Positions 8,071 through 57,351 of a stretch of DNA of 64,000 nt are shown here, piece by piece. The number at the start of each line of letters is the position of its first letter. Within the stretch, counting starts at the first letter, position 1. The stretch comes from Nannocystis bainbridge (GTDB lineage: Bacteria; Myxococcota_A; Polyangia; Nannocystales; Nannocystaceae): the NCBI RefSeq assembly GCF_028368995.1, contig NZ_JAQNDL010000003.1, forward strand, positions 2,656,001 to 2,720,000, written 5' to 3'. The notes beneath the pieces were generated by a model. It was given only the letters and a program-made list of their open reading frames with translations. It had not been told where the DNA came from and searched no databases. The translations under genes and the position numbers were made by a program.

Positions 8071-8110
8071 GAGCCGACCTCGCGCGCTCTGGGTGCGCGG
8101 AGGTCGGCTC
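8071..8110. terminator. GC-rich hairpin between convergent genes
   Basis: Inverted repeat GAGCCGACCT ... AGGTCGGCTC; no U-tract. Confidence 0.5.
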
Positions 8111-8140
8111 GGTGCGTGTCGCTGGCTTGGTCGAGCGAGC

Positions 8141-10564: not shown

Positions 10565-10599
10565 GATCGCAGCCCGCGCCCCGCACGAGCCGCGGCCGC

Positions 10600-11031: not shown

Positions 11032-11193
11032 TGTTCCGTCTCGGGTGGGGGGCATAATCCACAATGCAGTGGTGCCCGGCAACCGCGGACTCGCGTGCGC
11101 CTGCTTTTGCACACCCCGCCCCGCGCGATCGGCGGCCGGCGCGGGGGCGCGCGGTTTGACTCGCCCGGGAGTTCGGCAACACACTCCGCGCCC

Positions 11194-11706
11194 ATGAAGA
11201 TCGGCATCGAACTGCTGCGCGACCCGACCCGCGTCCTCGACCTGTGGAAGCGCCTGTCCGCAAAGACATTCGGCAAGCAGCTGTTCGCGCGCGCCATCTC
11301 GCTGGCGGTGCCCTACACCGGCAGCATCTCGCCGCTGGTGCTCGAGCTCGAGGAGGGCCGCGCCAAGGTGCAGATGCGCGACCGCTGGGGCGTGCGCAAT
11401 CACCTCCGCAGCGTGCACGCGGTCGCGCTGATGAACCTCGGCGAGGCCGTGACGGGCCTGGCGGTGATGAGCCTGCTCCCGCCCGGGGCGCGAGGCATCG
11501 TGCGCGAGCTGGCGATGGAGTACGTGAAAAAGGCGCGCGGGACGATCACCGGCGACGCTCGCGTAGAGGTGCCTGCGGGCTCGGGGACGCATGAATTCGA
11601 GGTCACCGGCGAGCTCCGCAACAGCATCGGCGAGGTCGTCGCGCGGGTGCGGGCCCGCTGGCGCATCGACGTGCCCGAAGCCGACGGCGCCGCAGCCGCC
11701 AGCTGA
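11194..11706 (+). CDS. PaaI/hotdog-fold thioesterase (DUF4442-like)
   Basis: PYTGSI, VRNHLRSVHAVALMNLGE and EYVKKARG motifs. Confidence 0.85.
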   Translation: MKIGIELLRDPTRVLDLWKRLSAKTFGKQLFARAISLAVPYTGSISPLVLELEEGRAKVQMRDRWGVRNHLRSVHAVALMNLGEAVTGLAVMSLLPPGARGIVRELAMEYVKKARGTITGDARVEVPAGSGTHEFEVTGELRNSIGEVVARVRARWRIDVPEADGAAAAS

Positions 11707-33816: not shown

Positions 33817-35091
33817 TCAGGCGACGAACGCCGCCAGGCGATCGATCGCCGTCAGCACCCGCGGCGCGTGCCGGCGCAGCCACGCCTCGTCGATCGTCGC
33901 CGCCGGGTCGTGGCCGGCCAGCGCCGCCGCCCCGTCGAAATCGACGTAGGCCAGGCGCGCCGTCCAGTCGCCGAACGGCCGGCCGAAGTCGCTGCCCGGG
34001 AGAATGGCCACACCTGTCTCTTCGAGCAGGCGCTCGCACAGCGCCTCGCCGCCGGCGATCCCGCGCCGGCGCAGCGCGTCGGCCTGGCCGGAGAAGTCTG
34101 GGAACAGGTAGAACCCGCCCTGCGGAGCCGCGCAGGCGACCCCGCCGGCGAGCAAGCGCCGGTGGCACCAGCCGCCGAGCGCCTTCAAGATCGCCTGCTC
34201 GTGGGCCACGTAGGCGGCGATGTCCGGGCCGAATCCGAACGCGGTCACCGCGGCGCACTGGATCGGCGCGCTGGTCGAGGTGTACGTCTCGCTGGCGACC
34301 GCGATCATCGCCTGCTGCAGCCACTGCAGCTCGCGCGGGAACAGGAACGTGCCGAGGCGCCAACCGCCGGCCCCGCACCACTTGCTGAGGCCCGAGCTGA
34401 TGATCGTGCCCTCGGGGTAGAAGCGGGCGATCGACGTGTGAGCGCCGTCGTGGTGCAGCTCGCCGTAGATCTCGTCGGACACCACCAGCACCTCGTGCGC
34501 GCGCAGGACCTCGGCCAGCGCCGCCAGCTCGTCGGCGTCGTAGGTCTGCCCGGTCGGGTTCGACGGGTAGTTGAGGATCAGCACCCGCGGGCGCCCGGCG
34601 TCGCGCCGGCACAGCCCGTCGACGTCGGCCGGCGTCAGCTTCCAGCCGTTGTCGGCCCGCGTCGGCAGCCACACCACCTGCCGGCCGATGATGCGCGCCT
34701 GCGGCGAGTACGACACCCACGCCGGCGACGGCAGCACCAGGTCGCCGTAGAACGCCAGCTGGGTGATGAACATCAGCTCCTTGCTGCCGGGGGCGACCAG
34801 CACGTGATCGCCGCTGTACTCGCGCTCGCCGGCGACCCCGCGCTGATGGTAGGCCGCGACCGCCTCGCGCAGCGCCGGCAGCCCGCGCACCGGCATGTAC
34901 TCCTTGCGCGTCGCGTGGGCCCGCAGCGCCTCGACCACGCTGTCCGGCACCGGGAACGGCGACTGGCCGAGCCCGAGCTTGAACACCTCGCGTCCGGCGG
35001 CGAGGAGGTCGTTGCTGCGCTCGTTGATCGCCACCGTGGCCGACGGCGACAGGCCGCGGACCTGGAGGTTGAGGCTGGCTCGGCCGTGCAT
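33817..35091 (-). CDS. PLP-dependent aminotransferase class I/II
   Basis: GLGQSPF, NYPSNPTG, SDEIY and LSKWCGAGGWRLG motifs. Confidence 0.92.
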   Translation of the reverse strand: MHGRASLNLQVRGLSPSATVAINERSNDLLAAGREVFKLGLGQSPFPVPDSVVEALRAHATRKEYMPVRGLPALREAVAAYHQRGVAGEREYSGDHVLVAPGSKELMFITQLAFYGDLVLPSPAWVSYSPQARIIGRQVVWLPTRADNGWKLTPADVDGLCRRDAGRPRVLILNYPSNPTGQTYDADELAALAEVLRAHEVLVVSDEIYGELHHDGAHTSIARFYPEGTIISSGLSKWCGAGGWRLGTFLFPRELQWLQQAMIAVASETYTSTSAPIQCAAVTAFGFGPDIAAYVAHEQAILKALGGWCHRRLLAGGVACAAPQGGFYLFPDFSGQADALRRRGIAGGEALCERLLEETGVAILPGSDFGRPFGDWTARLAYVDFDGAAALAGHDPAATIDEAWLRRHAPRVLTAIDRLAAFVA

Positions 35092-35095
35092 TCGA

Positions 35096-36742
35096 TCACC
35101 TGGCCTTTCGAGCAGCTTGCCTGTCCTCGCGGACGGCGCTGTTGTGGAGCGGGTTGGCGCGGCCGGAGCTGTCGGCGTCGGCCTGCCAGCGCGGCACCCA
35201 CCGCCGCACGCAGCGGGCCGCGTGCTCGCCGGGGAACAGCTCGGCGAACAGCGAGCGGTAAAGGTAGCCCTCCTTGGTGGTCGGCGTCTCGTGCGGGAAC
35301 CGGCGCCCGGCCTCGGCCAGATGCAGGTCCGAGACCGTCGCCTCGGCGTGGGCCTTGAGGCGCTCGACCCAGCCGTAGCCGACCCCGTCGGAGAACTGCT
35401 CTTTTTGCCGCCACAGCACCGCCGGCGGCAGCAGCGGGTCGGCCGGATCGGCGAACGCCGCCCGCAGCAGCGCCTTCTCCATCCGCGCCTCGCGCCCGGG
35501 CTCGGCCCGCAGCGGCCGCTTGAGCGCCGGATCGATCGTCATCGCCAGGTCGAGGAAGGCGAGGTCGAGGAACGGCACCCGCGCCTCGACGCCGTGCGCC
35601 ATCGTGCTCTTGTCGGCGCGCAGGACGTCGCTGAGGTGGAGGTTCTTGACCCGCTCGACCGTCTCGCGGAAAAACGCCTCCTCGCCCTCGGCGAAGTAGA
35701 AGTAGAGGTAACCGCCGAACACCTCGTCGGAGCCCTCGCCCGACAGCACCACCTTGACCCCCTGGTCCTTGATGTAGCGGCTGAGGCAATACATCGGGAT
35801 GCTCGCCCGCACCGTCGGGATGTCATACGATTCGGTGTGCCAGACGATGTCGCGCAGCGCCGCGACGCCCTCGTCGAGGTCGAGCCGGACCTCGTGGTGG
35901 TCGGTGCCGACGAACGCCGCCACGTCCCGCGCCGCCCGCAGGTCCGGCGAGTCGCCGTCGACCCCGATCGCGAACGACATCAGGCGCGCGTCCGGGTCGC
36001 GCCGCCGCGCCAGTCGGGCCGCCAGCGCCGCCACCAGGCTCGAGTCGAGCCCGCCCGACAGCAGCACCCCGAGCGGCACGTCGCTCATCAGCCGCTTGTC
36101 GACCGCCGCCTCGAACCGCTCGCGCAGGCCGGCGGCGTCGCGCCGGTAATCCGCCTGTCCTTCGAGCCATGTCCGCTCGTACCAGCGGCGCAGCCCGCCG
36201 CGGCGGGTGTAGACGTGGCCGGGCGGGAACACCTCGAACCACTCGCACTCGCCGGCCAGGACCTTGAGCTCGGACGCGAACCACAGGTTGCCGGCGCGGT
36301 CGCGGCCGTAGTAGAGCGGCTTTACGCCGATCGGGTCGCGCGCGACCAGCCAGTCGTCGTCGCGCAGGGCCGCCAGCGCGAACACGCCGTCGAGCTTGTC
36401 GACGAACGCGTCGCCCTGGGCCTCGAACAGGTGGGCCAGGACCTCGCTGTCGGAGCCGGTGCGGAACACCCGCCCCGCCGCCTGCAGCCCGGCGCGCAGG
36501 GCGGCGTGGTTGTAGATCTCGCCGTTGTGGACCACGGCGGCGCCGTCGCGCCCGAACAGCGGCTGCCGGCCCGAGGCCGGGTCCATGATCGAAAGCCGCC
36601 GGTGCAGCAGCGCGCCGACCCCCGGCAAGTAGTGCCTCCCGTGCCCGTCCGGGCCTCGGTGCGTCAGCCGCTCGCTCGCGGCTGTCGCTCGCGAGAGGAT
36701 CGCGTCATCGACGGCCCCGAAGACCGCGAGGATTCCACACAT
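35096..36742 (-). CDS. asnB: Asparagine synthetase B family glutamine-dependent amidotransferase
   Basis: MCGI (Cys1), HRGPD, HNGEIYN, LLSGGLDSS, SGEGSDE, EARVPFLD and RQKEQFSDGVG. Confidence 0.92.
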   Translation of the reverse strand: MCGILAVFGAVDDAILSRATAASERLTHRGPDGHGRHYLPGVGALLHRRLSIMDPASGRQPLFGRDGAAVVHNGEIYNHAALRAGLQAAGRVFRTGSDSEVLAHLFEAQGDAFVDKLDGVFALAALRDDDWLVARDPIGVKPLYYGRDRAGNLWFASELKVLAGECEWFEVFPPGHVYTRRGGLRRWYERTWLEGQADYRRDAAGLRERFEAAVDKRLMSDVPLGVLLSGGLDSSLVAALAARLARRRDPDARLMSFAIGVDGDSPDLRAARDVAAFVGTDHHEVRLDLDEGVAALRDIVWHTESYDIPTVRASIPMYCLSRYIKDQGVKVVLSGEGSDEVFGGYLYFYFAEGEEAFFRETVERVKNLHLSDVLRADKSTMAHGVEARVPFLDLAFLDLAMTIDPALKRPLRAEPGREARMEKALLRAAFADPADPLLPPAVLWRQKEQFSDGVGYGWVERLKAHAEATVSDLHLAEAGRRFPHETPTTKEGYLYRSLFAELFPGEHAARCVRRWVPRWQADADSSGRANPLHNSAVREDRQAARKAR

Positions 36743-36870
36743 GCGTCGTTCTCCCTCCGCCGGGCCGCCGCCCGCGCAGGGGCCGGTTATAACGCCCCCG
36801 CGCCCCCGCGGCAACCGACGATCTCGCTCACATGTCCCTCGGGACAGATTCATGAATCTCCTCGGTCGCA

Positions 36871-36935
36871 TTACGCACGCGTAACGCCAATCGTGATTGT
36901 AATGAACGTCGGTTCGTCAATCGCATTGCGCGCAA
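36871..36935. promoter_or_regulatory. Candidate operator palindromes in the divergent asnB/kamA-like promoter region
   Basis: TTACGC-AC-GCGTAA at 36871-36884 and TTGCGCGCAA at 36926-36935, in an AT-rich stretch. Confidence 0.35.
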
Positions 36936-37124
36936 AATTCCGGCGATTGATCCTTGCGGTGGCATCAGGCCCCATGTTAAGTTGCTGCTCAATCAGCGCA
37001 CAGCGGCGGCAGCGCGCCGGCGGACAGATCGTGCGGACTCTCGTGCGGCGTCTCGCCCGCGCCCGGCCGGCGCCTCATCCGCCCGATCGGCGAATCGCAC
37101 GGTCGGGCTCGCTCGGAGGATCCG

Positions 37125-38501
37125 ATGCCGGACGGCGCATTGAATCTGGGGACCTATCGCGCCTTCACGGCGCGCGACATCGACGTGATCCCGCAATTGC
37201 GCGGCCTGCCCGAGGAGGCGCGGCTGCGCCTGCGGGCGGTCGCGCAGGTGCTGCCGTTCCGCGTCAACGCCTACGTGCTCGAGCAATTGATCGATTGGTC
37301 GCGGGTCCCTGACGACCCGATGTATCAATTGACGATCCCGCAGGCGGAGATGCTGCACGAGGCCGACGTGAGCGCGTTGGTCGACCTGCTGCGCCGCGGC
37401 GACGACGCGGCGGTGCAGGCGCGGGCGCGGACGATCCAGCGGGCCATGAACCCGCACCCGGCCGGCCAGGTCGACCTCAACGTGCCGATCGAGGCCGGCG
37501 TCGAGCAGCGCGGGCTGCAGCACAAGTACCGCCAGACGGTACTGTTCTTCCCGGCGCAGGGCCAGACGTGCCACGCGTACTGTACGTATTGCTTCCGCTG
37601 GGCCCAGTTCGTCGGCCTCGACGACCTCAAGTTCGCCACGCGCGAGGCCGACTCGCTGGTCGAGTACCTCCGGCGTCACCCCGAGGTCAGCGACGTGCTG
37701 TTCACCGGCGGCGACCCGCTGGTGATGCGCACCAGCGTGCTGCGGCGCTACGTCGAGCCGCTGCTCAAGGCCGACCTGCCGAACCTGGCTCACATCCGCT
37801 TCGGCACCAAGGCGCTGGCGTACTGGCCGGCCCGCTTCCTCACCGACCCCGACGCCGACGACCTGCTGCGCCTGTTCGGCGAGATCGAGGCCGCGGGCAA
37901 GCACGTGGCCGTGATGGCCCACTACAGCCACCCGCGCGAGCTGGCGACGCCGGCCGCGGCGCGGGCGCTGCAGCGGGTGCGCGAGGCGGGCGCCGTCGTG
38001 CGCTGTCAGGCGCCGCTCATCCGCCACGTCAACGACGACCCCGACGTGTGGGCCGAGCTGTGGCGCACGCAGGTCCGCCACGGAGCTGTCCCTTATTACA
38101 TGTTCGTCGAGCGCGACACGGGCCCCAAGGAGTACTTCAAGGTCCCGCTGGACCGCGCGCTGAACATCTACCAGGGCGCCTACCGCCAGCTCTCGGGCCT
38201 GTGTCGCAGCGTGCGGGGGCCTTCCATGTCAGCGACGCCAGGAAAGATCCTCCTTGATGGCGTGACCGAAATTGACGGTCGTCGCTACTTTGTCCTACGT
38301 GTACTCCAAGGGCGCAACCCGGAGTGGGTGGGGCGCATCTTCTTCGCCGAATACGACCCCGACGCCGCGTGGCTGGACGAGCTCCGACCCGCATTCGGGG
38401 CATCCGAGTTCTTCTATACGGCTGAGCTCGCTGATCTGCGCCTTCGTCGCGCCGACCTGCGGCTGAGCGTGATCGGCGGTTCACATGCGGTCACCACGTG
38501 A
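37125..38501 (+). CDS. KamA-family radical SAM/PLP 2,3-aminomutase-like protein
   Basis: CHAYCTYC, HKY..TVL, FTGGDPL, PYYMF and PGK (putative PLP lysine). Confidence 0.88.
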   Translation: MPDGALNLGTYRAFTARDIDVIPQLRGLPEEARLRLRAVAQVLPFRVNAYVLEQLIDWSRVPDDPMYQLTIPQAEMLHEADVSALVDLLRRGDDAAVQARARTIQRAMNPHPAGQVDLNVPIEAGVEQRGLQHKYRQTVLFFPAQGQTCHAYCTYCFRWAQFVGLDDLKFATREADSLVEYLRRHPEVSDVLFTGGDPLVMRTSVLRRYVEPLLKADLPNLAHIRFGTKALAYWPARFLTDPDADDLLRLFGEIEAAGKHVAVMAHYSHPRELATPAAARALQRVREAGAVVRCQAPLIRHVNDDPDVWAELWRTQVRHGAVPYYMFVERDTGPKEYFKVPLDRALNIYQGAYRQLSGLCRSVRGPSMSATPGKILLDGVTEIDGRRYFVLRVLQGRNPEWVGRIFFAEYDPDAAWLDELRPAFGASEFFYTAELADLRLRRADLRLSVIGGSHAVTT

Positions 38502-42552: not shown

Positions 42553-43362
42553 CGCGAGGATGGTATCGGCGCCCGGGTCGTCGCGCGAGGCCGATTGTTT
42601 CCGATGCAGCAACCCGACAGTGCTGCGATCGGCCTCGTGCCCCCACCGATGATTGCGTGTCATCCGGCGATCTACAGGGTAGACTGCTGATGCGAGCGCC
42701 GTCGGGAAGCTGCTGAGTCTGCCGACACGCCTGCGCCGGGATGGACCGGCTCTCGCGGCCCGTTCCGGCATCTCGCCGCGCTCGGCGCCGGTCCGGGCCG
42801 GAATTCGCCGGAGATTCTCCCGAGCTGCATCTGCGGCGGGTTCGCCGTGCGCGCGGTGTTTCACCGCCCGTCGACCGGCCATTCGCAGCGCGAAGCTGTT
42901 TTGCGAGCTGCTTCGATTTGGTCGTTCGCGCCATCACGACCGGGCCGGGTAGCGTTCGCACAGCGTTCGCACAAGGACGACGGGCGCGCGCCCGCGGCCG
43001 GGCCGTCGGCAGGCTCTCCGACCCCACCTGGCGGATCTCGCTTCCGGCCGTCTGGCTGCGCTTGCGGGCAGCTTTCTCTGGCCGACGGCGTTCACGCAGG
43101 GGCTGCACGGTGGTCTGCAGCCCCTGTTCAATGTCCGTCCAGACATGTTCGAACAGACATGCAGCAGACTGCGCAGGACAATGTGCTGATGATAACACCG
43201 TATGTACGATGATACGTGCGTCGCACCGACCCAGGGCGGAAGCGACCGCCATGTCTGCGCGATCGCAAGGACCGATGTTCACCAATCGCGGGGGGGCTGG
43301 TCAGCGCGGAGCGTGGTCAGTACCCTGGATTTTGGCCCGCTCGGCGGGTCGGAGTAGCTGCG

Positions 43363-44247
43363 ATGAACGACATCAGCGCCTCGAACCCCCCGGAGTCCGA
43401 CAGCGAGATCCAGGCCCTGCGGCGGCGGGTGGCCGAGCTGGAGCAGAACATCGCGGCCCTCGAGCAGGAGCGGGACGTGTTCAAGCACGTCGTGCAGCAC
43501 GCCCCCGCCTTCATCTCGCGGCTCACCCCGGACGGGCGGACCATCTACGCCAACGCCACCTGCGAGCGGATCGTCGGCAAGACCTCCGAACAGATCGCGG
43601 GCACCAACACCATGCCGCTGCTGTACCCCGGCGACCTTTACCCGGCGGTCGAGGAGTACTTCAAGATCGCGGCCGAGGGCGGCGACGTCAGCGACTACGA
43701 GCTGACGATTCAGTCGCACACCGGCGAGCGGCGGACCCTGGCGTGGAACTCCTATCACCGCTACGGACCCGACGGCACCCTCCAGGAGGTGGTCTCGTTC
43801 GGGGTCGACGTCACCGACCGCAAGCGCGACGAGAACGAGCGCCGGCGGCTGCAGGAGGAGATCATCGCGGTACAGGCGGCCACGCTCGCCGAGCTCTCGA
43901 CGCCCCTCATCCCGATCAGCGCCAAGATCGTCGCCATGCCGCTGATCGGCTCGATCGACCCGGCGCGGGCCCAGCGGATCATCGAGACCCTGCTCGCCGG
44001 CATCAGCGAGGCCCGGGCGAGCACGGCGATCCTCGACATCACCGGCGTGGCCGTGGTCGACACCCAGGTCGCCGACTCGCTGATGCGGGCCGCTCGCGCG
44101 GTGAAGCTGCTCGGGGCCGAGGTCATCCTCACGGGCATTCGCCCGGACGTCGCTCAGACCTTGGTCCACCTCGGCACCAATCTCGACGGCATCGTGACTC
44201 GCGCCACCCTGCAGAGCGGCATCGCCTTCGCCATGCAGCAAGGCTGA
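43363..44247 (+). CDS. RsbR-like PAS-STAS protein
   Basis: Coiled coil, PAS, then STAS (LSTPLIPI, MPLIGSID, ILDITGV, LTGIRP). Confidence 0.88.
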   Translation: MNDISASNPPESDSEIQALRRRVAELEQNIAALEQERDVFKHVVQHAPAFISRLTPDGRTIYANATCERIVGKTSEQIAGTNTMPLLYPGDLYPAVEEYFKIAAEGGDVSDYELTIQSHTGERRTLAWNSYHRYGPDGTLQEVVSFGVDVTDRKRDENERRRLQEEIIAVQAATLAELSTPLIPISAKIVAMPLIGSIDPARAQRIIETLLAGISEARASTAILDITGVAVVDTQVADSLMRAARAVKLLGAEVILTGIRPDVAQTLVHLGTNLDGIVTRATLQSGIAFAMQQG

Positions 44248-44534
44248 CGCAGCCGTCGGCGCAAATCGCCATTGGGTGACCCCACCCCCGGTGATTCGCG
44301 GGCGCGAATCGCCGCGGAACGTCGTACGAGCATTCGGCCGCGCGCGCCCGCCGGGCGGCGTGCGGCCGCCTCCACGCCGCCGCGCCGGGGTGAGACCGAT
44401 GTGAGGCGTTCGCCGCTGGTGTGGTGATTGCCGCAGCGGCCCGAGTGAATGCACTTCGATGCGATAGAAACAAGTGGCAAAAGTGCTCGTCCACGGTTCG
44501 CTCGCCCGCTCGCGGCGGGGAGTTCGCGTGCGAA

Positions 44535-44592
44535 GCAAAATTGTCCATGATTAAATCATAGCAGTCTATATAATCAGGATAGCGATCAAAAC
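44535..44592. promoter_or_regulatory. AT-rich promoter/operator upstream of the NRPS-like gene
   Basis: Inverted repeat ATGATT-A-AATCAT at 44547-44559, with TATAAT nearby. Confidence 0.5.
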
Positions 44593-44652
44593 CGCTGGGA
44601 CGGCCGTGGCCTGCACGCGCCGCCGTGACCGCGATTTGCCGGAGGACTGAGC

Positions 44653-47600
44653 ATGACGAACTTCGACGCCCCACCCATCGACGCAGCATGGACCGGCGGC
44701 TTTTCACCCTACCCCGACGCCGAGGGGCTCGCGGCCCTGCTGGCGCACCAGGTCCGCGCCCGGCCTGACGCGCTGGCCGTGGACGCCGGCGAGGAGCGGC
44801 TGACGTACGCCGAACTCGACCGGCGCGCGAGCCAGATGGCGCACGGCCTCCAGGCCGCGGGCGTCGGCGTGGAGACGCCCGTCGGGGTCTTCATGAGTCC
44901 TCGCATCGAACAGATCGTCGCCCAGGTCGCGATCTGCATGGTGGGCGCCACATATGTCCCGCTCGACCCCGATTACCCACACGAGCGCCTGGAGTTCATG
45001 ATCGCCGACGCCGGGGTCGAACTGGTCCTCACCGACCGACGTCACTTCGGACTCGCGCTGGGCGGCCGGCGCGAGCTGTGCGTCGACCGCGAGCGCCCGC
45101 AATTCGAAAGCAACCCGACCCGCTTCTCCGGTATTCAGGGCGGACCCGACAGCCGCACCCACATCCTCTACACCTCCGGCTCGACCGGCAAACCCAAGGG
45201 TATCGAGATCGTCACGCGGGCGATCAGCCGCCTCGTGCTGGCCACCGATTACGTGCAGATCGAGCCGAGCGACCGGGTCGCGCAGATCGCCAATTTCTCG
45301 TTCGACGCCGCCATCTTCGAGGTCTGGGGCGCGCTGCTCAACGGGGCGGCGCTGGTCCTGATCCCGCGCCGCCGGGTCCTCGATCCGCACGAGTTCCGCG
45401 CCGAGCTGGCGAGCCGCGGCGTCACCGTGATGTTCCTGACCACCGCGCTGTTCAACCTGGTCGCCGGCGTCTGCCCCGACGCGTTCGGATCGCTGCGCTA
45501 CTTGCTGGTCGGCGGCGAGAAGGCCAACGCCGAGGCGTTCCGCGCGGTGCTGCAGGCCGGGCCACCGCTCCATCTGCAGAACATCTACGGCCCGACCGAG
45601 AGCACCACCTTCGCCGTCGCCTGCGAGCTGGACCATGAGCGCGCCGCCGGCATCAACGTGCCGATCGGTCGCCCCATCCGCAACACCCTGGTCTTCATCC
45701 TCGACGCGGCGCAGCGGCCAGTCGGCATCGGCGAGGTGGGCGAGCTCTACATCGGCGGTCACGGCCTCGCCCGCGGATACCTCCATCGCCCCGAGCTCAC
45801 CGCCGAGCGCTTCGTGATGGTGGCAGGATTGACCGGCGAGGGCGCGATTCGCCTGTATCGCACCGGCGACCAGGTCCGCTGGCGCCCCGACGGGCTGATC
45901 GAGTTCGTCGGCCGCACCGATTTTCAGGTCAAGATCCGCGGTCATCGCATCGAGCTCGAGGAGATCGAGGCGGCGCTGGTGGCCAGCGGAATGGTCGCCG
46001 ACGCGGCCATCACGGTGCACGAGAGCCCGAGCGGCGAAAAATCGCTGGTCGCCCACGTGATCCCGCGCGACCGCGCGGCCTTCCGCGTCGCGCTGCTGCA
46101 AGAGCACCTGCAGACCAAGCTGCCGCGCTTTATGGTCCCCGCCCGCTTCGTCGAGCTCGACGCCATGCCGCTCAACGCCAACGGCAAGGTCGACCGCAAG
46201 GCGCTCGCCGCCGGCCAGGCCCACTCGGGGGTGTTCAGCCTCAACGCCATGCTCGCGACCACCCAAGATCCGCTGACCGGCGAGCTGGCGGCGATATGGG
46301 CCGACCTCCTCGGCGTCCCGCTGGTCCTGCCGGAGGACGATTTCTTCCGCCTCGGCGGCAGCTCGCTGCTGGCCGCGCGCCTGGTGCTGCGGGTGCGCGA
46401 CGTCTATCGCGTGCGCTTCCCGGTCTACGCGCTGTACGAGGCCGGCACGCTGCGCGAGTTCGCGGCCCAGCTGCGACGAGCGCTGCGCGGCGAGACGATC
46501 CGCAGCGCCACGACGGCAGGGCCGGAGACGTGGCGGGCGGACGCGCAGCTGCCCGCCGATCTGCGCGCGCAGATCGTCCAGGCGGCCGCGCTGCCGCGCC
46601 CGGCGGCCGACGCCTGGCGCTCGGGCCAGGTGCTGCTGACCGGCGCGACCGGGTTCCTCGGCGCGTTTCTGCTGCGCGACCTGCTGCTACACACCGGGGC
46701 GCGCGTGCACTGCCTGGTGCGCGCCGCCGACGCGACCGAAGGGCTGGCCCGCGTGCGCCAGGCGCTGGCCAAGTACGGCCTGTGGCAGGCCTCGTTCGCC
46801 GCGCGCATCGAAGCCGTGCCCGGCGACCTGGCCCTGCCGCGCCTCGGCCTCGACGAGGCCGGCTTCGCCGCGCTCGCGGCCGACGTCGACGCCGTCTTCC
46901 ACAGCGGCGCCCAGGTCAACTACGTCCAGCCGTACGCGGCCCACCGCACCACCAATGTCGGCGGCACCCACGAGGTGCTGCGGCTGTGCGCCACCGGCAA
47001 GCTCAAGCCGCTGCACCACGTCTCGACGATCGCGGTGTTCGGCCCGAGCGGGTTCTTCGGCGGCAAGCGGGTGGTGCACGAGCACGACCCGATCGACGAC
47101 CACGTCGAGTACCTGGTGCTCGACATCGGCTACTCGGCCAGCAAGTGGGTGGCGGAGAAGTCGGTGTGGTATGCGGGCGCGCTCGGGCTGCCGGTCACGG
47201 TCTATCGCCCCGGCTTCATCATGGGCGACAGCCGCAGCGGGGCCGGCAACGCCGACGATTTTGTCGGCCGCTGGGTCCGCGGCGCGGTCCAGGTCGGCGG
47301 CTTCCCGGAGCTGCCGCGGCAGCGCAAGGAGTTCGTGCCGGTCGATTTCGTGAGCCGGGCGATCCTCCACGTCGCCGGCGCGCCGGACAACGTCGGCCGC
47401 GCCTACCACCTGGTCCCGCCCGACCTGCGTCAGTCGCCCGACCTCGAGCAGTTCTTCGCCATGATCCGCGAGTTCGGCTACCCGCTGGCGCAGTGGGCCT
47501 ACGGCGAATGGGTCGACCGCGTCATCCAGGACTCGCGCGGGCGCGACAACCCGCTGTGCTCGCTGCTGCCGATGCTGTTCGAGCGGGTCTATCGCGACGA

Positions 47601-47802
47601 GCTGACCCGCTGGGAGCTCTACGAGGACATGCCGGCCTACGACACCAGCCACACCGACGCGGCGCTGGCCGGCAGCGGCGTCCGCTTCGTCGCCATGGAC
47701 CGGGCCCTGGTCGCCCGCTACCTGCGCTACTGGATCGCCAGCAGCCAGCTCCCGCCCGTGCCCGCCGAAGCGCCCGAGGAGCAGCGCAAGGCGGGGCCTT
47801 GA
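44653..47802 (+). CDS. Monomodular NRPS-like A-T-R (adenylation-thiolation-terminal reductase) synthetase
   Basis: GGAGGA RBS; YTSGSTGKPKG, FDAAIFE, YGPTE, YRTGD and NGKVDR; PCP motif FFRLGGSSL; reductase motifs TGATGFLG and YSASK. Confidence 0.93.
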   Translation: MTNFDAPPIDAAWTGGFSPYPDAEGLAALLAHQVRARPDALAVDAGEERLTYAELDRRASQMAHGLQAAGVGVETPVGVFMSPRIEQIVAQVAICMVGATYVPLDPDYPHERLEFMIADAGVELVLTDRRHFGLALGGRRELCVDRERPQFESNPTRFSGIQGGPDSRTHILYTSGSTGKPKGIEIVTRAISRLVLATDYVQIEPSDRVAQIANFSFDAAIFEVWGALLNGAALVLIPRRRVLDPHEFRAELASRGVTVMFLTTALFNLVAGVCPDAFGSLRYLLVGGEKANAEAFRAVLQAGPPLHLQNIYGPTESTTFAVACELDHERAAGINVPIGRPIRNTLVFILDAAQRPVGIGEVGELYIGGHGLARGYLHRPELTAERFVMVAGLTGEGAIRLYRTGDQVRWRPDGLIEFVGRTDFQVKIRGHRIELEEIEAALVASGMVADAAITVHESPSGEKSLVAHVIPRDRAAFRVALLQEHLQTKLPRFMVPARFVELDAMPLNANGKVDRKALAAGQAHSGVFSLNAMLATTQDPLTGELAAIWADLLGVPLVLPEDDFFRLGGSSLLAARLVLRVRDVYRVRFPVYALYEAGTLREFAAQLRRALRGETIRSATTAGPETWRADAQLPADLRAQIVQAAALPRPAADAWRSGQVLLTGATGFLGAFLLRDLLLHTGARVHCLVRAADATEGLARVRQALAKYGLWQASFAARIEAVPGDLALPRLGLDEAGFAALAADVDAVFHSGAQVNYVQPYAAHRTTNVGGTHEVLRLCATGKLKPLHHVSTIAVFGPSGFFGGKRVVHEHDPIDDHVEYLVLDIGYSASKWVAEKSVWYAGALGLPVTVYRPGFIMGDSRSGAGNADDFVGRWVRGAVQVGGFPELPRQRKEFVPVDFVSRAILHVAGAPDNVGRAYHLVPPDLRQSPDLEQFFAMIREFGYPLAQWAYGEWVDRVIQDSRGRDNPLCSLLPMLFERVYRDELTRWELYEDMPAYDTSHTDAALAGSGVRFVAMDRALVARYLRYWIASSQLPPVPAEAPEEQRKAGP

Positions 47803-47809
47803 TCAAAAC

Positions 47810-47857
47810 TGTCCAGGAGGACATGCCCAATCGGACATGCCCTCCAGGACATGTCTC
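47810..47857. repeat. Phased 3 x 14-bp array between convergent genes
   Basis: TGTCCAGGAGGACA|TGCCCAATCGGACA|TGCCCTCCAGGACA|TGTCTC. Confidence 0.85.
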
Positions 47858-48915
47858 TACAAAATACCTGCCCGATCGACCAGGCGCCAGGCGATGCGCT
47901 CGCCGGCGCGCAGCGGCACCAGCTCGTCCCGGCCGAACGGATAGCTGGCCGGGACGTCCCAGGCCGCCCGCTCGAGGCGTACGGTCTCGGTGTTGACCGG
48001 CAGGTCGTAGAACCGCGGGCCGAACCGGCTGGCGAAGCCCTCGAGCCGCGCCAGCGCCCCCGCGCGCTCGAACGCCTCGGCGTACAGCTCGATCGCCGCG
48101 TGGGCGGTGAACATCCCGGCGCAGCCGCACGCGCTCTCCTTGGCCCCGCGCGGGTGCGGGGCGCTGTCGGTGCCGAGGAAGAATTTGGCCTCGCCGCTGG
48201 TGGCGGCCGCGAGCAGCGCCTCGCGGTGGAGCTCGCGCTTCAGCACCGGCAGGCAGTAGTAGTGCGGGCAGATGCCGCCGGTGAACATGGCGTTGCGGCT
48301 GTACAGCAGGTGATGCGCGGTGATCGTGGCGGCCACCTTCGGGCCGGCGGCGCGGACGAAGGCGACGGCGTCGCGGGTGGTGATGTGCTCGACGACCACG
48401 CGCAGGTCGGGCAGGCGCTCGAGCAGCGGCGCCAGGTGGCGCTCCAGGAACACCGCCTCGCGGTCGAACACGTCGACGCCCGGATCGGTGACCTCGCCGT
48501 GGACCAGCAGCGGCAGCCCGAGCGCCTGCATGGCCTCGAGCACCGGCAGCACCCGCGCCAGATCGGTCACGCCCGACTGCGAATTGGTGGTCGCGCCGGC
48601 CGGGTAAAGCTTGACCCCGTGCACGAACCCGCAGTCGCGCGCGCGGGCGATCTCCTCCGGCGCCGTCGCGTCGGTCAGGTACAGCGTCATCAGCGGCGTG
48701 AACCGCCCCGCCAGCGCCGTCGGCACGGCCGCGACGATGCGCGCGCGATAGGCCGCCGCCTCCTCGACCCGCGTGACCGGCGGCTTCAGGTTGGGCATCA
48801 CGATCGCCCGCGCGAACTGCCGCGCGGTGTGGGCCACCGCGTCGGCCAGCACGACGCCGTCGCGCAGGTGGAGGTGCCAGTCGTCGGGGCGTACGAGCTC
48901 GAGCGCGTCGGTCAC
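47857..48915 (-). CDS. pyrC: Dihydroorotase (type II, homodimeric)
   Basis: [44 protein letters not shown] and GTDSAPH. Confidence 0.96.
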
Positions 48916-51590: not shown

Positions 51591-53312
51591 TCACCAGCCG
51601 TCCGCGACCGCACCGACGCCGGGCCCGAGCCCCGTCACGGTCAGATCGGCGGCCGTCACCGGCCCGCCCGGCGTCGCCGTCGGCGCCACGAACAGCAGCG
51701 GCAAGGCCCCCGCGCCGTGCGACGACGCCGCCAGCCCGACGTGCGTCAGCGGCTCGGCGAAGCAATGCTCGGCGATCGCCGTCCAGGTCGCCCCGTCGCT
51801 CGAGCCGAGCCCGCGCACGCAGGTCGCGTCGAGGGTCCGCTCGAGCCGCACGAACGCCGGCGACTCGCCCGTCAGCCCGGCCACGCCCGCGAACTCGAGC
51901 GCCTGCGTGGACGCGCCGGCCACCTCGCGCAGCTGCACGCGCAGCGGGTGATCGTCGGCGGGCCGGCAGATCGCCAGGTACGCCGCGTCGGCCTCCAGCC
52001 CCGCGCGGGCCGCCAGACACGCCTTGGCCCACGGCTCGACGTGGCTGTTGGGCGCGGCGATCGCCGCCGTCCACGCGACATCTCCTTCACCCACTTCGGC
52101 CCACGCCAGCAGCCCCTCGTCGCTGCTGTCCCACAGGTCGCCCGAGTCGACCGTCACCGCCACGATCGCCGCCGACTCGCGCTCCGGCGCCTCGCACGCG
52201 TCGATGCAGGTGAACGGCCAGCCCTGCGGCCCCGCGGTGTTCGCCCACGGATCTTCGTCGACGTTGATCTGATTGGTGGCGATGTGATGCACCCCCGCCT
52301 GCTCGGACTCCTCCCACGCACCCTCGTCGTCGGCCACCCACACGCGGCTGACCAGCCCGGCCGCGCGCACCGCCGCGGCCAGCTCCACGTCGCCGAGCGC
52401 CAGGTTGAACACGATCGCCTCCGCGTGCTCGCCCAGGTCTCGCCCGTCGCTCAGCCCGGGCGCGACGAAGGCCGCGCGCGCCCCCGCGTCGGCGCCGACG
52501 TAGCTCGCCAGCGGCCCTGACGGATCGTCGAGGTCGCCGCCGGTCAACATCGCGATCACCCGCCCGCGCCAGCTCTCGAGCCGCGGCCAGGCGCAGCCGC
52601 GTCGGGTCACCGCGTCCTGCAGCGTGGTCGCGCCGGGGCAGTCCGCGAGCAGCTCGGCCGGCCGCACCAGCGCCGCGCCGAAGGCCGCGTCCAGCAGCGC
52701 GTCGAGGTCGCCCGGCTGATGCCCGCCGCCGAACCCGTCCTTCAGATCGATCCACAGCGTCACCACCTCGTGCTCGGGCACCGCGCGAGCGAACGCCGCC
52801 ACCTGCCCCAGACACTGCGACAGGCTGCGGCAGTGCGTGTCGTCGTCGACGATGTCGGTGTGATACACGAACCAATCGCCGGCCAGCGCCGACTCGAACG
52901 CCTTGCCGGTGTGAATATCGAGCTCGAGCGAGCGGATCCGGTGATACACGAATTGGTCGAACAGCGCCTCGTGCCGCTGAAACGCGTTGTGCGCTGATTT
53001 CTGCCGCACCTCGTGATAGCGTGGGCCGCTCGCCTCGGCGCCCGTGGTCCCGTCCGTCGATTCACCGCTGCTCGTCGCCGGCTCCGTGGTCGTCACGGTC
53101 GAGCTCGTCGAGGTCGTCACGGTCGAGCTCGTCGAGGTCGACGACGAGGTCGAAGTCGTCGTCGTCGTGCCCGGCGCCTCCCCGCTCGTCGGTACCTCGC
53201 TGCCGGTCGTCGTGCTCGTCGCGGTCCCGGTCCCGGCCTCGCTCGCGGTCCCACCCGACGCGCCTCCGCAGGCCGCAAACACGACGAAGAGGGTCCGCGA
53301 GAGACGGTGCAT
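51591..53312 (-). CDS. PI-PLC-like (X-domain) phosphodiesterase lipoprotein with a C-terminal beta-sandwich
   Basis: FAAC lipobox, Thr-rich linker, KSAHNAF, RSLELDIH, VYH, WIDLKD, WP.L...RGR and IATN. Confidence 0.78.
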   Translation of the reverse strand: MHRLSRTLFVVFAACGGASGGTASEAGTGTATSTTTGSEVPTSGEAPGTTTTTSTSSSTSTSSTVTTSTSSTVTTTEPATSSGESTDGTTGAEASGPRYHEVRQKSAHNAFQRHEALFDQFVYHRIRSLELDIHTGKAFESALAGDWFVYHTDIVDDDTHCRSLSQCLGQVAAFARAVPEHEVVTLWIDLKDGFGGGHQPGDLDALLDAAFGAALVRPAELLADCPGATTLQDAVTRRGCAWPRLESWRGRVIAMLTGGDLDDPSGPLASYVGADAGARAAFVAPGLSDGRDLGEHAEAIVFNLALGDVELAAAVRAAGLVSRVWVADDEGAWEESEQAGVHHIATNQINVDEDPWANTAGPQGWPFTCIDACEAPERESAAIVAVTVDSGDLWDSSDEGLLAWAEVGEGDVAWTAAIAAPNSHVEPWAKACLAARAGLEADAAYLAICRPADDHPLRVQLREVAGASTQALEFAGVAGLTGESPAFVRLERTLDATCVRGLGSSDGATWTAIAEHCFAEPLTHVGLAASSHGAGALPLLFVAPTATPGGPVTAADLTVTGLGPGVGAVADGW

Positions 53313-53620
53313 GGCACGAGCTGACCGCCACCCGGCCGCCGCTGTCAAGCCGACCTGTCTCCGGGGACATCTCGGGTCCCGCGCGGCCCTGGGAGCCCCG
53401 CAGGGGGCTTCTGCGAGGTTTGCGCGGTCCGCCTTTTCGCGCCAGCGGGCTCACCGCCCGACCCCTGTTCGCGACCTTTCTCCGCGCTGAGCCTGCTCTC
53501 GCCTCTCGCCGCTCGTGGCCCGCGCGTGCCCACGATCGTCGGCGTATCCCCCCGCGGGGGAGCACCCACGCACGGGCCGGGCGGCTTGACAGCGCGGCCT
53601 CGCGCGCTACCAGTCCAGGC

Positions 53621-54565
53621 ATGCCGGCCAGAGCAATTTGGGAAGGAACCATCGGTTTTGGTCTCGTTCAGATCCCCGTCGGGCTGTACTCCGCCGAGAC
53701 CCGGGACGAGCTCGACTTCGACATGCTCGATCGGCGCGACATGTCGCCCGTCGGTTATCAGCGGTACAACCGCGAGACCGGCGAGCCCGTCGAATGGGAC
53801 GACATCGTCAAGGGTTATGCCATCAAGAAGGGCGAGTACGTGATCGTCGAGCCCGAGGACTTCAAGCGCGCCAGCGTCAAGGCGACCCAGACCGTCGACA
53901 TCGTCCAGTTCGCCGACGCCGAGGCCATCGATCCGACCTTCTTCGAGAAGCCCTACGTGCTCGTGCCCGGCAAGCGCGGCGCCAAGCCGTACGTGCTGCT
54001 GCGCGAGGCCCTGCGCAAGGCCGGCAAGGTCGGCATCGCCCGCGTCGTCATCCGCACCCGCGAGAGCCTCGCCGCGGTGATGGTCAAGGGCGACGCCCTC
54101 GTGCTCGAGCTGCTGCGCTACGCCCACGAGCTCAACAAGATCGACGATTTCGACCTGCCCAAGGGCAAGGACGCGCCCAAGATCTCCGCGCCCGAGCTCA
54201 AGATGGCCGAGCGGCTCATCGACGAGATGACCGCCGAGTTCAAGCCCGAGGAGTTCAAGGACACCTACCGCGACGACCTGCTGGCCTTCATCAAGAAGAA
54301 GGCCAAGGGCGAGGAGATCGAGGAGGTCGACGTCGAGGCCGAGGCGCCGGCGACCAATGTGGTCGACATGATGGCGCTGCTGAAGAAGAGCCTCACGCGC
54401 GGCGGCAAGGCCCCTGCGGCCGAGACCGACAAGCAGAAGAACAAGCCCCGGCGTAGCGCGGCGCGCAACGAGAAGCCGGCGGCCAAGGCCAAGAAGGCGA
54501 CCGCCACCAACCGCAAGAAGAAGCCGGCCAAGCGCGCCAAGACGACCCGGCGAAAGGCGGCCTGA
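53621..54565 (+). CDS. ku: NHEJ Ku protein with a basic C-terminal tail
   Basis: RAIWEG.I.FGLV.IPV, IVKGY, Y.LLREAL and NVVDMM.LLK.SL motifs. Confidence 0.96.
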   Translation: MPARAIWEGTIGFGLVQIPVGLYSAETRDELDFDMLDRRDMSPVGYQRYNRETGEPVEWDDIVKGYAIKKGEYVIVEPEDFKRASVKATQTVDIVQFADAEAIDPTFFEKPYVLVPGKRGAKPYVLLREALRKAGKVGIARVVIRTRESLAAVMVKGDALVLELLRYAHELNKIDDFDLPKGKDAPKISAPELKMAERLIDEMTAEFKPEEFKDTYRDDLLAFIKKKAKGEEIEEVDVEAEAPATNVVDMMALLKKSLTRGGKAPAAETDKQKNKPRRSAARNEKPAAKAKKATATNRKKKPAKRAKTTRRKAA

Positions 54566-57351
54566 TGGCGTCGCTGGACTCCTATCACCGCAAGCGCGAC
54601 TTCACCCGCACCTCGGAGCCGCGCGGCGAGACCCCGAAGCGCCGCTCGCAGGGTGAGTTCATCATCCACAAGCACGCGGCGACCCGGCTCCACTACGACC
54701 TGCGGCTCGAGATCGACGGCGTGCTCAAGAGCTGGGCGGTGCCGAAGGGCCCGAGCCTCGACCCGCACGACAAGCGGCTCGCCGTCCACGTCGAGGACCA
54801 CCCGCTCGAGTACGGCGGCTTCGAGGGCACCATCCCGCAGGGCGAGTACGGCGGCGGCTCGGTGGTGCTGTGGGACCGCGGGCGCTGGTACCCCGAGGGC
54901 GATGCGCGCGCCGACTACCGCGCCGGCAAGCTCAAGTTCCGCTTCGACGGCCACAAGCTCCACGGCGCCTACACGCTGGTGCGCATGCACGGCCGTCGGG
55001 GCGACGATCACGACAACTGGCTGCTGATCAAGGAAGCCGACGAGGAGGCCAGCGACGACGGCGAAGCCCTGGTGCGCGACCAACCCGAGAGCGTGATCAG
55101 CGGCCGTACCGTCGAAGAGGTCGCCGCCGGCGTGCCCGCGAAGAAGCAGGCCAGGAACAAGAAAAAGGCGACGAAGAAGGCTCCTGCCAAGAAGACCCCC
55201 AAGAAATCGACCCCCAAGAAGGCGACCGCCAAGAAGGCGGCCAAAGTCGCGGCAAAGAAAGCCCCCGCCAAGAAATCCGCGGCCAAGAAGTCGACCGCCA
55301 AGAAGGCGGCCAAAGTCGCGGCAAAGAAAATCCCCGCCAAGAAGACAGCCAAGAAATCCACGACCAAGAAGACCGCCGCCAAGAAATCCGCCAAGAAGAC
55401 CCCCGCGATCAAGGCCACCAGCCGGCCGCGCGCCACCCGGAAGAAGACCAGCAAGAAGACCGCCGCCAAGGCCGAATCTGCCCCAGCGCGCGCGCTCCCG
55501 GCCCGCATCGCCCCCGAGCTGGCCACCCTGGTAGAAAAAGTCCCGCCCGGCGACGAGTGGGTCCACGAGATCAAGTTCGACGGCTATCGCCTGCTCGTCC
55601 GCCTCGACGGTGACGACATTCGCCTCATCACCCGCGGCGAGCAGGACTGGACCGAGCGGCTCGCCCCGCTCGCCAAATCACTACAGCGGCGCTTCGGCGA
55701 CCGGCGCCTGCTCGTCGACGGCGAGCTCGTGCACGTCGACGACGACGGCCTCACTCGCTTCGGCCCGCTGCAGGCCGCCCTCGCCGAGGAGCGCACCGGG
55801 GAGCTCGTGTTTTATGCCTTCGACCTGCTCCACCTCGACGGTCACGACCTGCGCGGCCTCCCGCTGGTCGAGCGCAAAGAGCTGCTCGCCGCCCTGCTCC
55901 CGCCCGAGGACGCCCCCGGGCGCGTGCGCCTGTCGGAGCACGTCGTCGGCGGCGGCGAGGAGCTGCTCGCACGCGCCTGCTCGCTCGGCCTCGAGGGCAT
56001 CCTCGCCAAGCGCGCCGACGCCCCCTATCGCAGCGGCCGCACCCGCGACTGGCTGAAGATCAAGTGCGGCCGCCGCCAGGAGGTCGTCGTCGGCGGCTAC
56101 GCGACCGCGCGCAGCGGCCCGCGGGCCCTCGGTGCCCTGCTGATCGGCGTATTCGACGACGACGGCAAATTGCAGTACGCCGGCAAGGTCGGCACCGGCT
56201 TCGATTTCGCCGAGGCCGCCCGGCTCAAAAAATTGCTCGCCGCCCGCGAGGCCCCGCGCTCCCCCTTCGCCGGCCGCCTCCCGCCCGGCCTCGGCGACGT
56301 CCATTTCGTCCGCCCCGACGTCGTCATCGAGGTCCGCTTCGGCGAGTGGACCCGCGACGATCGCATGCGTCACGCCGTCTACGAGGGCGTGCGCGAGGAC
56401 AAGCGGCCCAAGCAGGTCCAGCGCGAGACCCCGGCCGCCGCCCCGACCAGCGCCACGACCGAGGTCCTCGGCGTCGCCTTGAGCAACCCCGGCCGCGTGC
56501 TGTGGCCGGACGATGGCATCACCAAGCGCGACCTCGCCGAGTACTACGAGAAGATCGCCGGGTGGATCCTCCCGCAGGTCGCCGAGCGCCCGCTCAGCCT
56601 CGTGCGCTGCCCTGACGGCGTCGGCAAGCCGTGCTTCTTCCAGCGCCACATGAAGCACGACCTGCCCGAAGGCATCCACGCGATCGATCTCGACGGCGAC
56701 GGCGAGCCGGCCTACGTCTACGTCCGCGACGCCGCGGGCCTGGTCGGCCTGGCCCAGATCGGCGTGCTCGAGCTGCACGCCTGGGGCGCCACCGTCGCCG
56801 ATCCCGACGGCCCCGACCGCCTGGTCCTCGACCTCGACCCTGCCGAGGATGTCCCCTGGGACATGGTCAAAGGGGCAGCCCGGGCCATGCACGAGCGCCT
56901 CGCCCAGCTCGACCTCGACAGCTTTTTGAAGACCACCGGCGGCAAGGGCTTGCACGTCGTCGTCCCGCTGACCGCCGGTCGCCAGAGCTGGGCCGAGGTC
57001 AAGGCGTTCGCCCGCGGGATCGCCCGCGAGTTCAGCCTCGCCGACCCCGAGCATTTTGTCGACGTCGCCGCCAAGCTCAAGCGGCGCGGCAAGATCTACA
57101 TCGACTACCTCCGCAACGACCGCAAGGCCACCAGCGTCGCCGCCTACTCGCCGCGGGCTCGCCCCGGCGCGCCCGTGTCGGTCCCGCTGCGCTGGTCCGA
57201 GCTCGCGGGCCTCGAAGCCCCGCAGACCTACGACCTCACAAGCACCGTCGCTCGCCTCGCCAAGCTGCGCAGCGACCCCTGGCGCGAGCTGGCGCGCGTC
57301 CGCCAGGTCCTGACGCCCGCCCGTCTGCGCGCCGTCGGCGTCAAGAAATAA
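54565..57351 (+). CDS. ligD: DNA ligase D (phosphoesterase-ligase-polymerase) with a Lys/Ala-rich insert
   Basis: Phosphoesterase HAATRLHYDLRLE, ligase EIKFDGYR / EGILAK / WLKIK, polymerase DLDP / KTTGGKGLH / IDYLRN; TGATG coupling to ku. Confidence 0.96.
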   Translation: MASLDSYHRKRDFTRTSEPRGETPKRRSQGEFIIHKHAATRLHYDLRLEIDGVLKSWAVPKGPSLDPHDKRLAVHVEDHPLEYGGFEGTIPQGEYGGGSVVLWDRGRWYPEGDARADYRAGKLKFRFDGHKLHGAYTLVRMHGRRGDDHDNWLLIKEADEEASDDGEALVRDQPESVISGRTVEEVAAGVPAKKQARNKKKATKKAPAKKTPKKSTPKKATAKKAAKVAAKKAPAKKSAAKKSTAKKAAKVAAKKIPAKKTAKKSTTKKTAAKKSAKKTPAIKATSRPRATRKKTSKKTAAKAESAPARALPARIAPELATLVEKVPPGDEWVHEIKFDGYRLLVRLDGDDIRLITRGEQDWTERLAPLAKSLQRRFGDRRLLVDGELVHVDDDGLTRFGPLQAALAEERTGELVFYAFDLLHLDGHDLRGLPLVERKELLAALLPPEDAPGRVRLSEHVVGGGEELLARACSLGLEGILAKRADAPYRSGRTRDWLKIKCGRRQEVVVGGYATARSGPRALGALLIGVFDDDGKLQYAGKVGTGFDFAEAARLKKLLAAREAPRSPFAGRLPPGLGDVHFVRPDVVIEVRFGEWTRDDRMRHAVYEGVREDKRPKQVQRETPAAAPTSATTEVLGVALSNPGRVLWPDDGITKRDLAEYYEKIAGWILPQVAERPLSLVRCPDGVGKPCFFQRHMKHDLPEGIHAIDLDGDGEPAYVYVRDAAGLVGLAQIGVLELHAWGATVADPDGPDRLVLDLDPAEDVPWDMVKGAARAMHERLAQLDLDSFLKTTGGKGLHVVVPLTAGRQSWAEVKAFARGIAREFSLADPEHFVDVAAKLKRRGKIYIDYLRNDRKATSVAAYSPRARPGAPVSVPLRWSELAGLEAPQTYDLTSTVARLAKLRSDPWRELARVRQVLTPARLRAVGVKK

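Follow-up and report, generated by a model that had tools for sequence, protein, structure and literature searches.

The myxobacterium Nannocystis bainbridge carries a single complete gene for a stand-alone protein with an adenylation (A), a thiolation (T) and a thioester reductase (R) domain, and this A-T-R gene lies within the 64,000-nucleotide stretch analyzed here (the window; contig NZ_JAQNDL010000003.1, positions 2,656,001 to 2,720,000). The gene is intact and probably encodes a working amino-acid reductase of the non-ribosomal peptide synthetase (NRPS)-like kind. The A-T-R layout, the carrier serine, the glycines and the Tyr/Lys pair of the R domain, and the Asp and Lys that anchor an amino acid are all present in the predicted protein. 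The substrate is probably a branched-chain aliphatic amino acid, either isoleucine or valine, with leucine possible, and not isoleucine specifically. We incline, with some reservation, to the view that the enzyme turns Ile and/or Val into an amino aldehyde from which branched dialkylpyrazines would form. Such pyrazines are characteristic volatiles of Nannocystis and Chondromyces with an earthy smell, and a link between them and the gene is plausible, the product itself being predicted from the sequence.

Domain structure of the A-T-R protein

GC content by codon position (0.74/0.47/0.93) singles out one long open reading frame (ORF) on the forward strand, at 44653-47802. The initial annotation of this DNA had started the feature at 44535, a position within an AT-rich block upstream; the coding start is the ATG at 44653. 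The elements of the gene are as follows.

44641..44645, + strand: Shine-Dalgarno sequence GGAGG, 7 bases 5′ of the ATG; invariant in the alignment of five Nannocystis species
44653..47802, + strand: coding sequence of the stand-alone A-T-R protein (P0001), 1049 amino acids; from the ORF and codon-position GC
44743..46188, + strand: adenylation domain, residues 31-512, code DAFFLGITFK; from Pfam AMP-binding and AMP-binding_C, and motifs
46285..46470, + strand: thiolation (carrier) domain, residues 545-606, with Ser571 in GGSS; from Pfam PP-binding
46636..47760, + strand: thioester reductase domain, residues 662 to ~1036; from Pfam NAD_binding_4 and Epimerase, the match to 4u7w, and motifs

The 1049 amino acids contain one A and one T domain, and the order is A, T, R. 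Pfam assigns AMP-binding to residues 31-377 (5.9e-80), AMP-binding_C to 437-512, PP-binding to 545-606 and NAD_binding_4 to 662-904 (5.9e-65). No condensation domain (PF00668) is found in the protein by Pfam, and the A domain is preceded by just 30 residues; the domain order bears out the earlier description of an A-T-R enzyme lacking such a domain. A dimodular pyrazinone synthetase of the AusA type is ruled out by the single module and the missing condensation domain.

The motifs quoted in the initial annotation are all found in the translated ORF, FDAAIFE at residue 217, VMFLT at 259, LLVGG at 284 and NIYGPTESTTF at 310. The A3 loop of the A domain reads HILYTSGSTGKPKG at residue 170, and NGKVDR is found at 510. 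The column of the carrier serine, Ser571, is serine in all 105 of the aligned homologues. In the reductase, GATGFLG at residues 664-670 corresponds to the Rossmann GxxGxxG, while Y827 and K831 lie within YSASK; we take the roles of the glycine motif and the Tyr/Lys pair to be those general to short-chain dehydrogenases/reductases. Among solved structures LgrA is the best relative of the A domain, and the best relative of the R domain is the MxaA reductase (4u7w), matched by residues 632-1026 with 266 bits.

Substrate specificity of the adenylation domain

Ten residues of a hydrophobic pocket, D218, A219, F222, F261, L285, G287, I311, T319, F320 and K512, give the code DAFFLGITFK, and these are the same ten that had been read before. 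The columns presumably correspond to GrsA positions 235/236/239/278/299/301/322/330/331/517. The GrsA structure 1AMU ranks 14th among the solved structures and the top five alignments are all to LgrA, and the GrsA numbering is backed by recovery of a published code.

Is the register of the columns correct? We aligned 105 proteins of 900-1400 amino acids taken from 122, leaving out one neighbour protein, one identical copy and 15 outside the length range. The published code DAFFLGVTFK emerges exactly at these columns in 18 of the 105, which argues that the register is correct. The first column is D throughout and the last is K in 104. According to PMC10512218, Asp235 and Lys517 (GrsA numbering) bind the α-amino and carboxylate groups of the amino acid. 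Further codes in the alignment are these.

DAFFLGGTFK: 15 of 105 homologues
DAFFVGGTFK: 12 of 105 homologues
DAFFLGATFK: 8 of 105 homologues
DAFFMGATFK: 6 of 105 homologues
DAFFLGITFK: 5 of 105 homologues, the query included

DAFFLGVTFK, to which the query code is equal at nine of ten positions, is listed for cyanopeptolin modules that install Ile, with Val as a minor variant (PMC2533009, Table 1), and has also been published for modules that install Ile in synthetases of the aeruginosin/suomilide type. An exact match to DAFFLGITFK did not turn up in the literature searched, and the specificity codes of MgoA and PvfC are not given in the text of PMC3945005. The code had been called Ile-type in the initial annotation. 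A probable assignment to the Ile/Val type stands on the nine matching positions; the restriction to Ile does not, being too specific because the seventh position varies between I, G and V in the Nannocystis orthologues. Carboxylic acid reductases have A domains that take aryl or aliphatic carboxylic acids, and these are not known to carry the amino-binding Asp of NRPS A domains. That identity is ruled out for the present protein by Asp218 and by the match to a published amino-acid code.

A proposed route to branched dialkylpyrazines

In the route that we propose, Ser571 would be primed by a phosphopantetheinyl transferase (PPTase) encoded elsewhere in the genome. The A domain would then adenylate L-isoleucine and/or L-valine (possibly leucine too) and load it as the thioester, and the R domain, using NAD(P)H, would release the α-amino aldehyde. 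Two aldehydes would condense non-enzymatically to a 2,5-dialkyl-dihydropyrazine, and its oxidation by air would give 2,5-di-sec-butyl-, 2,5-diisopropyl- or mixed pyrazines, with some 3,6-dialkyl-pyrazinone possible as a side product. The genome has a PPTase-family gene, matched by PF01648 at 417702-417926 of contig 4 with 64.5 bits.

The labelling work of Nawrath in 2010 dealt with the origin of these pyrazines from valine; it was reportedly carried out with Nannocystis exedens and Chondromyces crocatus and led to the proposal of a valine aldehyde. A review of 2025 covers feeding of labelled valine and of valine anhydride for the 2,5- and 2,6-diisopropylpyrazine of myxobacteria, and a second paper also cites the labelled-valine work on the diisopropylpyrazines. 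The earlier suggestion of 2,5-di-sec-butylpyrazine from Ile is weaker than the Ile/Val call, since the review names Val-derived diisopropylpyrazines. The general sequence from A-T-R enzyme to amino aldehyde to pyrazine, also part of that suggestion, is documented for enzymes of this kind, namely ATRed, GupB, PvfC and HamD. In the literature searched we found no gene assigned to the branched dialkylpyrazines of myxobacteria.

The other named producer, C. crocatus, was predicted to carry such genes, and three proteins of A-T-R length (1076, 1105 and 1083 amino acids) are indeed encoded in its 11.39-Mb chromosome, with 41-43% identity to the window protein; the test is a weak one because A-T-R proteins are common. 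Their codes are DAFFVGGTFK, DALFVGGTFK and DLFFLGGGFK. The three group together in the phylogenetic tree, which suggests duplication within the genus, and C. apiculatus has one protein of A-T-R length.

The same enzyme and the same first step could instead lead mainly to a 3,6-dialkyl-2(1H)-pyrazinone of the flavacol/deoxyaspergillic-acid type, if the aldehyde were to attack the next aminoacyl thioester and the resulting dipeptide aldehyde were to cyclize and be oxidized. There are precedents: PvfC of P. fluorescens converts two Leu to flavacol and an imidazole, the A-T-R-only enzyme AsaC of Aspergillus flavus and A. sclerotiorum gives deoxyaspergillic acid or flavacol in yeast (PMC10512218), and in E. 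coli ATRed yielded a pyrazinone as a minor product (PMC7586950). In addition Nannocystis pusilla yields pyrazinones, the nannozinones and sorazinones, whose enzymes have been called enigmatic. Yet the work of Nawrath is said to point to a reduced amino acid rather than to a dipeptide, and the feeding covered in the review is for diisopropylpyrazines, not pyrazinones. No sequence feature tells the two outcomes apart, and on balance we regard the pyrazinone as a rather unlikely main product.

If the pyrazine reading is true, one enzyme would be enough to make alkylpyrazine flavour and signal compounds from Ile/Val. A partnerless gene of 3.1 kb is an easy target, and makes an old question cheaply testable.

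Distribution, conservation and selection

How widely is the gene distributed? Closest to its product in the database are annotated Nannocystis proteins, 1052 amino acids long and 78-85% identical. Next come myxobacterial proteins from metagenomes (57-71%), proteins of Myxococcus and Corallococcus (47-53%), and proteobacterial A-T-R proteins (41-47%). Full-length relatives with 44-48% identity are present in two genomes of another genus of the same family. Myxococcus eversor and Corallococcus terminator have relatives of 53-54% identity, again with no adjoining biosynthetic genes; genes for LVIVD-repeat proteins lie upstream and for small unknown proteins downstream. A FastTree phylogeny of 124 rows, built from proteins of 900-1400 amino acids, gives three groups, each with SH-like support of 100.

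Group 1: 39 myxobacterial rows, holding the Nannocystis clade
Group 2: 35 rows with Polyangiaceae, including C-A-T-R forms of Sorangium (C, condensation domain)
Group 3: 50 proteobacterial rows

When 73 genomes of the order were scanned, four of the ten other genomes of the genus proved to have a full-length orthologue. Orthologues within Nannocystis share 79-85% identity with the window protein, the one of N. exedens DSM 71 standing at 85%. At all four named Nannocystis loci (N. punicea, N. exedens DSM 71, Nannocystis sp. RBIL2 and N. pusilla Na p29) the A-T-R gene lies between a PAS-STAS gene and a convergent dihydroorotase-like gene. Within the genus Nannocystis the A-T-R gene is chromosomal and has been inherited vertically. 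Comparison of the window gene with three intact orthologues gives dN/dS of 0.20-0.32 in six of six pairs, at dS of 0.17-0.37, a pattern indicative of purifying selection of moderate strength. The frame and all the catalytic motifs are intact in all four genes.

Several observations weigh against a role in pyrazine formation. A dN/dS of 0.2-0.3 signifies moderate constraint at most. The orthologue of N. pusilla Na p29 (G037:C2:8983713-8986827) is in three overlapping pieces in different frames, corresponding to query residues 1-248, 245-646 and 606-1039 with 79-85% identity, and this may be due either to assembly-error frameshifts or to decay of the gene. There is no match at E<=1e-100 in five smaller assemblies of the genus (4.5-9.1 Mb, 64-88% complete). 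The code cannot tell Ile, Val and Leu apart, and A-T-R proteins are so widespread (124 in the tree) that their presence in pyrazine producers is unspecific. The best solved relative of the R domain, MxaA, presumably carries out a four-electron reduction to the alcohol. A single A-T-R enzyme can also yield pyrazinones or an imidazole instead, as PvfC and AsaC illustrate (PMC10512218). Lastly, an RNA-labelled soil run touches the A-T-R gene in four short contigs only.

45197-45344: 13 differences
45315-45456: 1 difference
45517-45812: 8 differences
46178-46348: 5 differences

These contigs are no evidence of transcription, because they are possibly DNA or from a relative. The peaks of the run at 45162-45200 and 46166-46212 stem from NRPS motifs that are conserved, and come from many organisms.

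Some of these points would suit an enzyme with another substrate, such as a non-proteinogenic hydrophobic amino acid, or a gene that is silent or decaying, with no pyrazine role in either case. The ten-residue code predicts weakly, the N. pusilla copy is broken, constraint is moderate, and the soil run adds nothing on expression. However, neither the frame nor any catalytic motif is disrupted here or in three orthologues, the promoter block and the ribosome-binding site are conserved, and the same type of code runs across the 105 homologues. We therefore consider such a state of affairs improbable. The other alternative raised by these points is two successive reductions to an amino alcohol, isoleucinol or valinol, that would serve as a building block or a signal and not as a precursor of pyrazines. 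It draws on the match to MxaA, presumably alcohol-forming, and on the alcohol group of valdiazen, a product of the HamD pathway. HamD itself has been described as related to enzymes of this class. Against this, the characterized stand-alone A-T-R enzymes of the cited papers release aldehydes, and the neighbourhood contains neither an acyltransferase gene nor any other whose product would consume an amino alcohol; an amino alcohol product seems unlikely. Release of an aldehyde that proceeds to the pyrazine is the reading that we prefer.

The upstream region

Two features are found upstream of the coding sequence.

44532..44590, + strand: AT-rich promoter-like block, the lowest-GC stretch of the 64-kb window; largely conserved
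44547..44559, no strand assigned: 13-base palindrome ATGATT-A-AATCAT inside the AT-rich block; exact in three of five aligned Nannocystis loci

The initial annotation had given the gene its own AT-rich operator. The AT-rich block is real: the 50 bases from 44532 have 30% GC, less than any other stretch of that length in the 64-kb window, for which the overall figure is 71.3%, and the block is largely kept in five Nannocystis loci with an invariant core ATAG.AGT.TATAT. Its role as an operator is conjectural. The 405-base spacer as a whole has a mean column identity of 84% over the five species, and the synonymous-site identity implied by dS is 71-85%. Two further blocks of the spacer, 44397-44432 and 44461-44488, have normal GC, lie 5′ of the AT-rich block and are nearly invariant in the five species; the second contains TGGCAAAAGTGC, the spacing of which reads as unlike sigma-54.

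The palindrome, searched as the pattern ATGATTNAATCAT, has just two sites in the whole genome. The second is located between a divergent TetR-family gene (contig 2, 613464-614273) and a glyoxalase/VOC-family gene (614370-614972). There (contig 2, 614340-614400) it is contained in a perfect 22-base palindrome of 10+2+10 bases, GATTCAATCA-TT-TGATTGAATC. Among 11 genomes of the genus the pattern has two sites here, two in G037, one in G041 and none in the other eight, and in both G037 (one of its two sites) and G041 (its single site) it lies 5′ of the A-T-R gene. None of the 11 contains the control pattern, the same sequence reversed. The A-T-R gene may thus share a putative TetR-type repressor with the second palindrome locus. 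Going further, the A-T-R gene and the three A-T-R genes of C. crocatus could together represent the long-postulated Val/Ile reductase of pyrazine formation, with the promoter under a TetR-family repressor whose own operator contains the same rare palindrome; we put this forward tentatively, as a possibility less likely to be right in full than wrong.

Other signals were sought in the region. The sigma-70-type promoter consensus has no site in 44200-48000, and Rfam gives no match at E<=1 on 44200-44720. Of 14 pairs predicted in leader hairpins none has a compensatory change, so that a structured leader is unsupported. Inverted repeats with arms of at least 10 bases are limited upstream to GC-rich pairs, the 6+1+6 palindrome falling below that threshold.

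Genomic neighbourhood and related genes

The genes that flank the A-T-R gene are as follows.

43216-44247, + strand: PAS+STAS protein gene, upstream neighbour
47857-48915, - strand: dihydroorotase-like amidohydrolase gene, downstream convergent neighbour

Within 10 kb Pfam identifies PAS-STAS, SIR2, IgGFc-binding-family, TPR, PI-PLC-like, Ku and LigD proteins. No oxidase, methyltransferase, second NRPS module or transporter is encoded in that range, and the earlier statement that there is no tailoring gene holds good, the flanks being the two genes listed. The A-T-R gene stands outside any multi-gene cluster. It is moreover the only complete A-T-R gene in the 11.05-Mb genome, where tblastn with the R domain gives two matches, to itself and to a T-R paralogue.

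The T-R paralogue (661 amino acids; contig 4, 271130-273001, - strand) shares 60% identity with the A-T-R protein over residues 413-1037 of the latter, having the C-terminal A subdomain, T and R without the A core. It has Ala in place of the A10 Lys and His in place of the reductase Tyr, and the carrier Ser is retained. It is present in five of 11 genomes of the genus, this one counted, and one copy has an internal TGA.

A cluster of the Pvf/Ham/Mgo type is ruled out at this location, there being no adjoining N-oxygenase or PvfA/PvfD-type genes, and the only AurF/PvfB-family gene of the genome lies 1.36 Mb away (contig 2, 1292072). The A-T-R gene might still be the core of a Pvf/Ham-like signalling pathway with an N-oxidized product, its partners being encoded elsewhere. 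The use of Val/Leu by PvfC/HamD-type enzymes and the presence of that one AurF-family gene could be taken in its favour. Next to the AurF-family gene, however, are genes of the TetR and old-yellow-enzyme types, its 19-kb locus contains no NRPS gene, and no oxygenase lies beside the A-T-R gene in four syntenic Nannocystis loci or in two of the Myxococcaceae. Such a pathway is very improbable.

Elsewhere in the window, 33817-38501 contains genes for an aminotransferase and an asparagine-synthase-family protein, together with a weak radical-SAM-like match whose 25.1 bits fall short of the cut-off of 29.5. These are 6-10 kb upstream of the A-T-R gene with unrelated genes between, and no link is seen. 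At 53021-57351 a Ku gene is followed by a gene for a three-domain LigD (phosphoesterase, ligase and primase-polymerase), a standard bacterial end-joining pair.

Comparison with known A-T-R systems

A-T-R enzymes that give pyrazines, piperazines or pyrazinones are already known in ATRed, PvfC, GupB and AsaC. The chemistry itself is not new, makers of pyrazines and pyrazinones with this layout being documented in Xenorhabdus, Pseudomonas, Streptomyces and Aspergillus. Synthetases of the AusA type (A-T-C-A-T-R or C-A-T-C-A-T-R) are related in outcome, as their terminal reductase releases an aldehyde that leads to a six-membered N-heterocycle; they have two modules and a condensation domain, whereas the window protein has one module and none.

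PvfC, MgoA and HamD of Pseudomonas and Burkholderia, compared by description, share the A-T-R layout and act on Val/Leu (PMC10194917, PMC8179380, PMC8560942). Their products include (dihydro)pyrazine N-oxides, flavacol and valdiazen (PMC10194917, PMC8179380, PMC8560942, PMC10512218). The pvf, mgo and ham genes are in operons with a diiron N-oxygenase (PvfB/HamC) and partners, while the window gene has no adjoining one. In 400 gammaproteobacterial genomes, with the best two candidates per genome scored, no PvfC-type locus was found at E<=1e-180. A search of plasmids brought up a locus on pSNEVa of Serratia nevei, which is not a pvf cluster. It has a codirectional 6-kb cluster (5473-11550 of the locus) for a SAM methyltransferase, a pyridoxamine-phosphate-oxidase-family protein, a free-standing adenylation protein and an A-T-R protein of 45% identity, an arrangement that would suit a product of the methoxypyrazine type.

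AsaC is closer in one respect, since it too is A-T-R only, takes Leu/Ile and by itself makes a dialkyl heterocycle. It differs in being fungal, in its pyrazinone product and in its cluster with a P450 and other tailoring genes (PMC10512218). GupB of the Streptomyces guanipiperazine cluster is a single-module A-T-R enzyme that reduces two amino acids to amino aldehydes, and without its partner reductase the condensed intermediate air-oxidizes to a pyrazine. Its substrate is tyrosine, and the other members of its four-gene operon encode an F420-dependent reductase and two P450s (PMC8179380).

ATRed (xind01729) of Xenorhabdus indica, again compared by description, is likewise one gene with A, T and R and no condensation domain, and alone gives a pyrazine in both the native host and E. 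coli, by a proposed route from amino aldehyde through a cyclic Schiff base to oxidation (PMC7586950). Unlike the window enzyme with its aliphatic Ile/Val-type code, ATRed uses phenylalanine to give dibenzylpyrazine. A-T-R proteins of Xenorhabdus and Photorhabdus are 41-43% identical to the window protein. As aldehyde-releasing A-T-R enzymes are already described, the Nannocystis gene adds to an established type. To connect it with the pyrazines of myxobacteria is a reasonable interpretation of the sequence that is new to the literature searched, and pyrazine formation would be one of several known outcomes for an enzyme of this kind.

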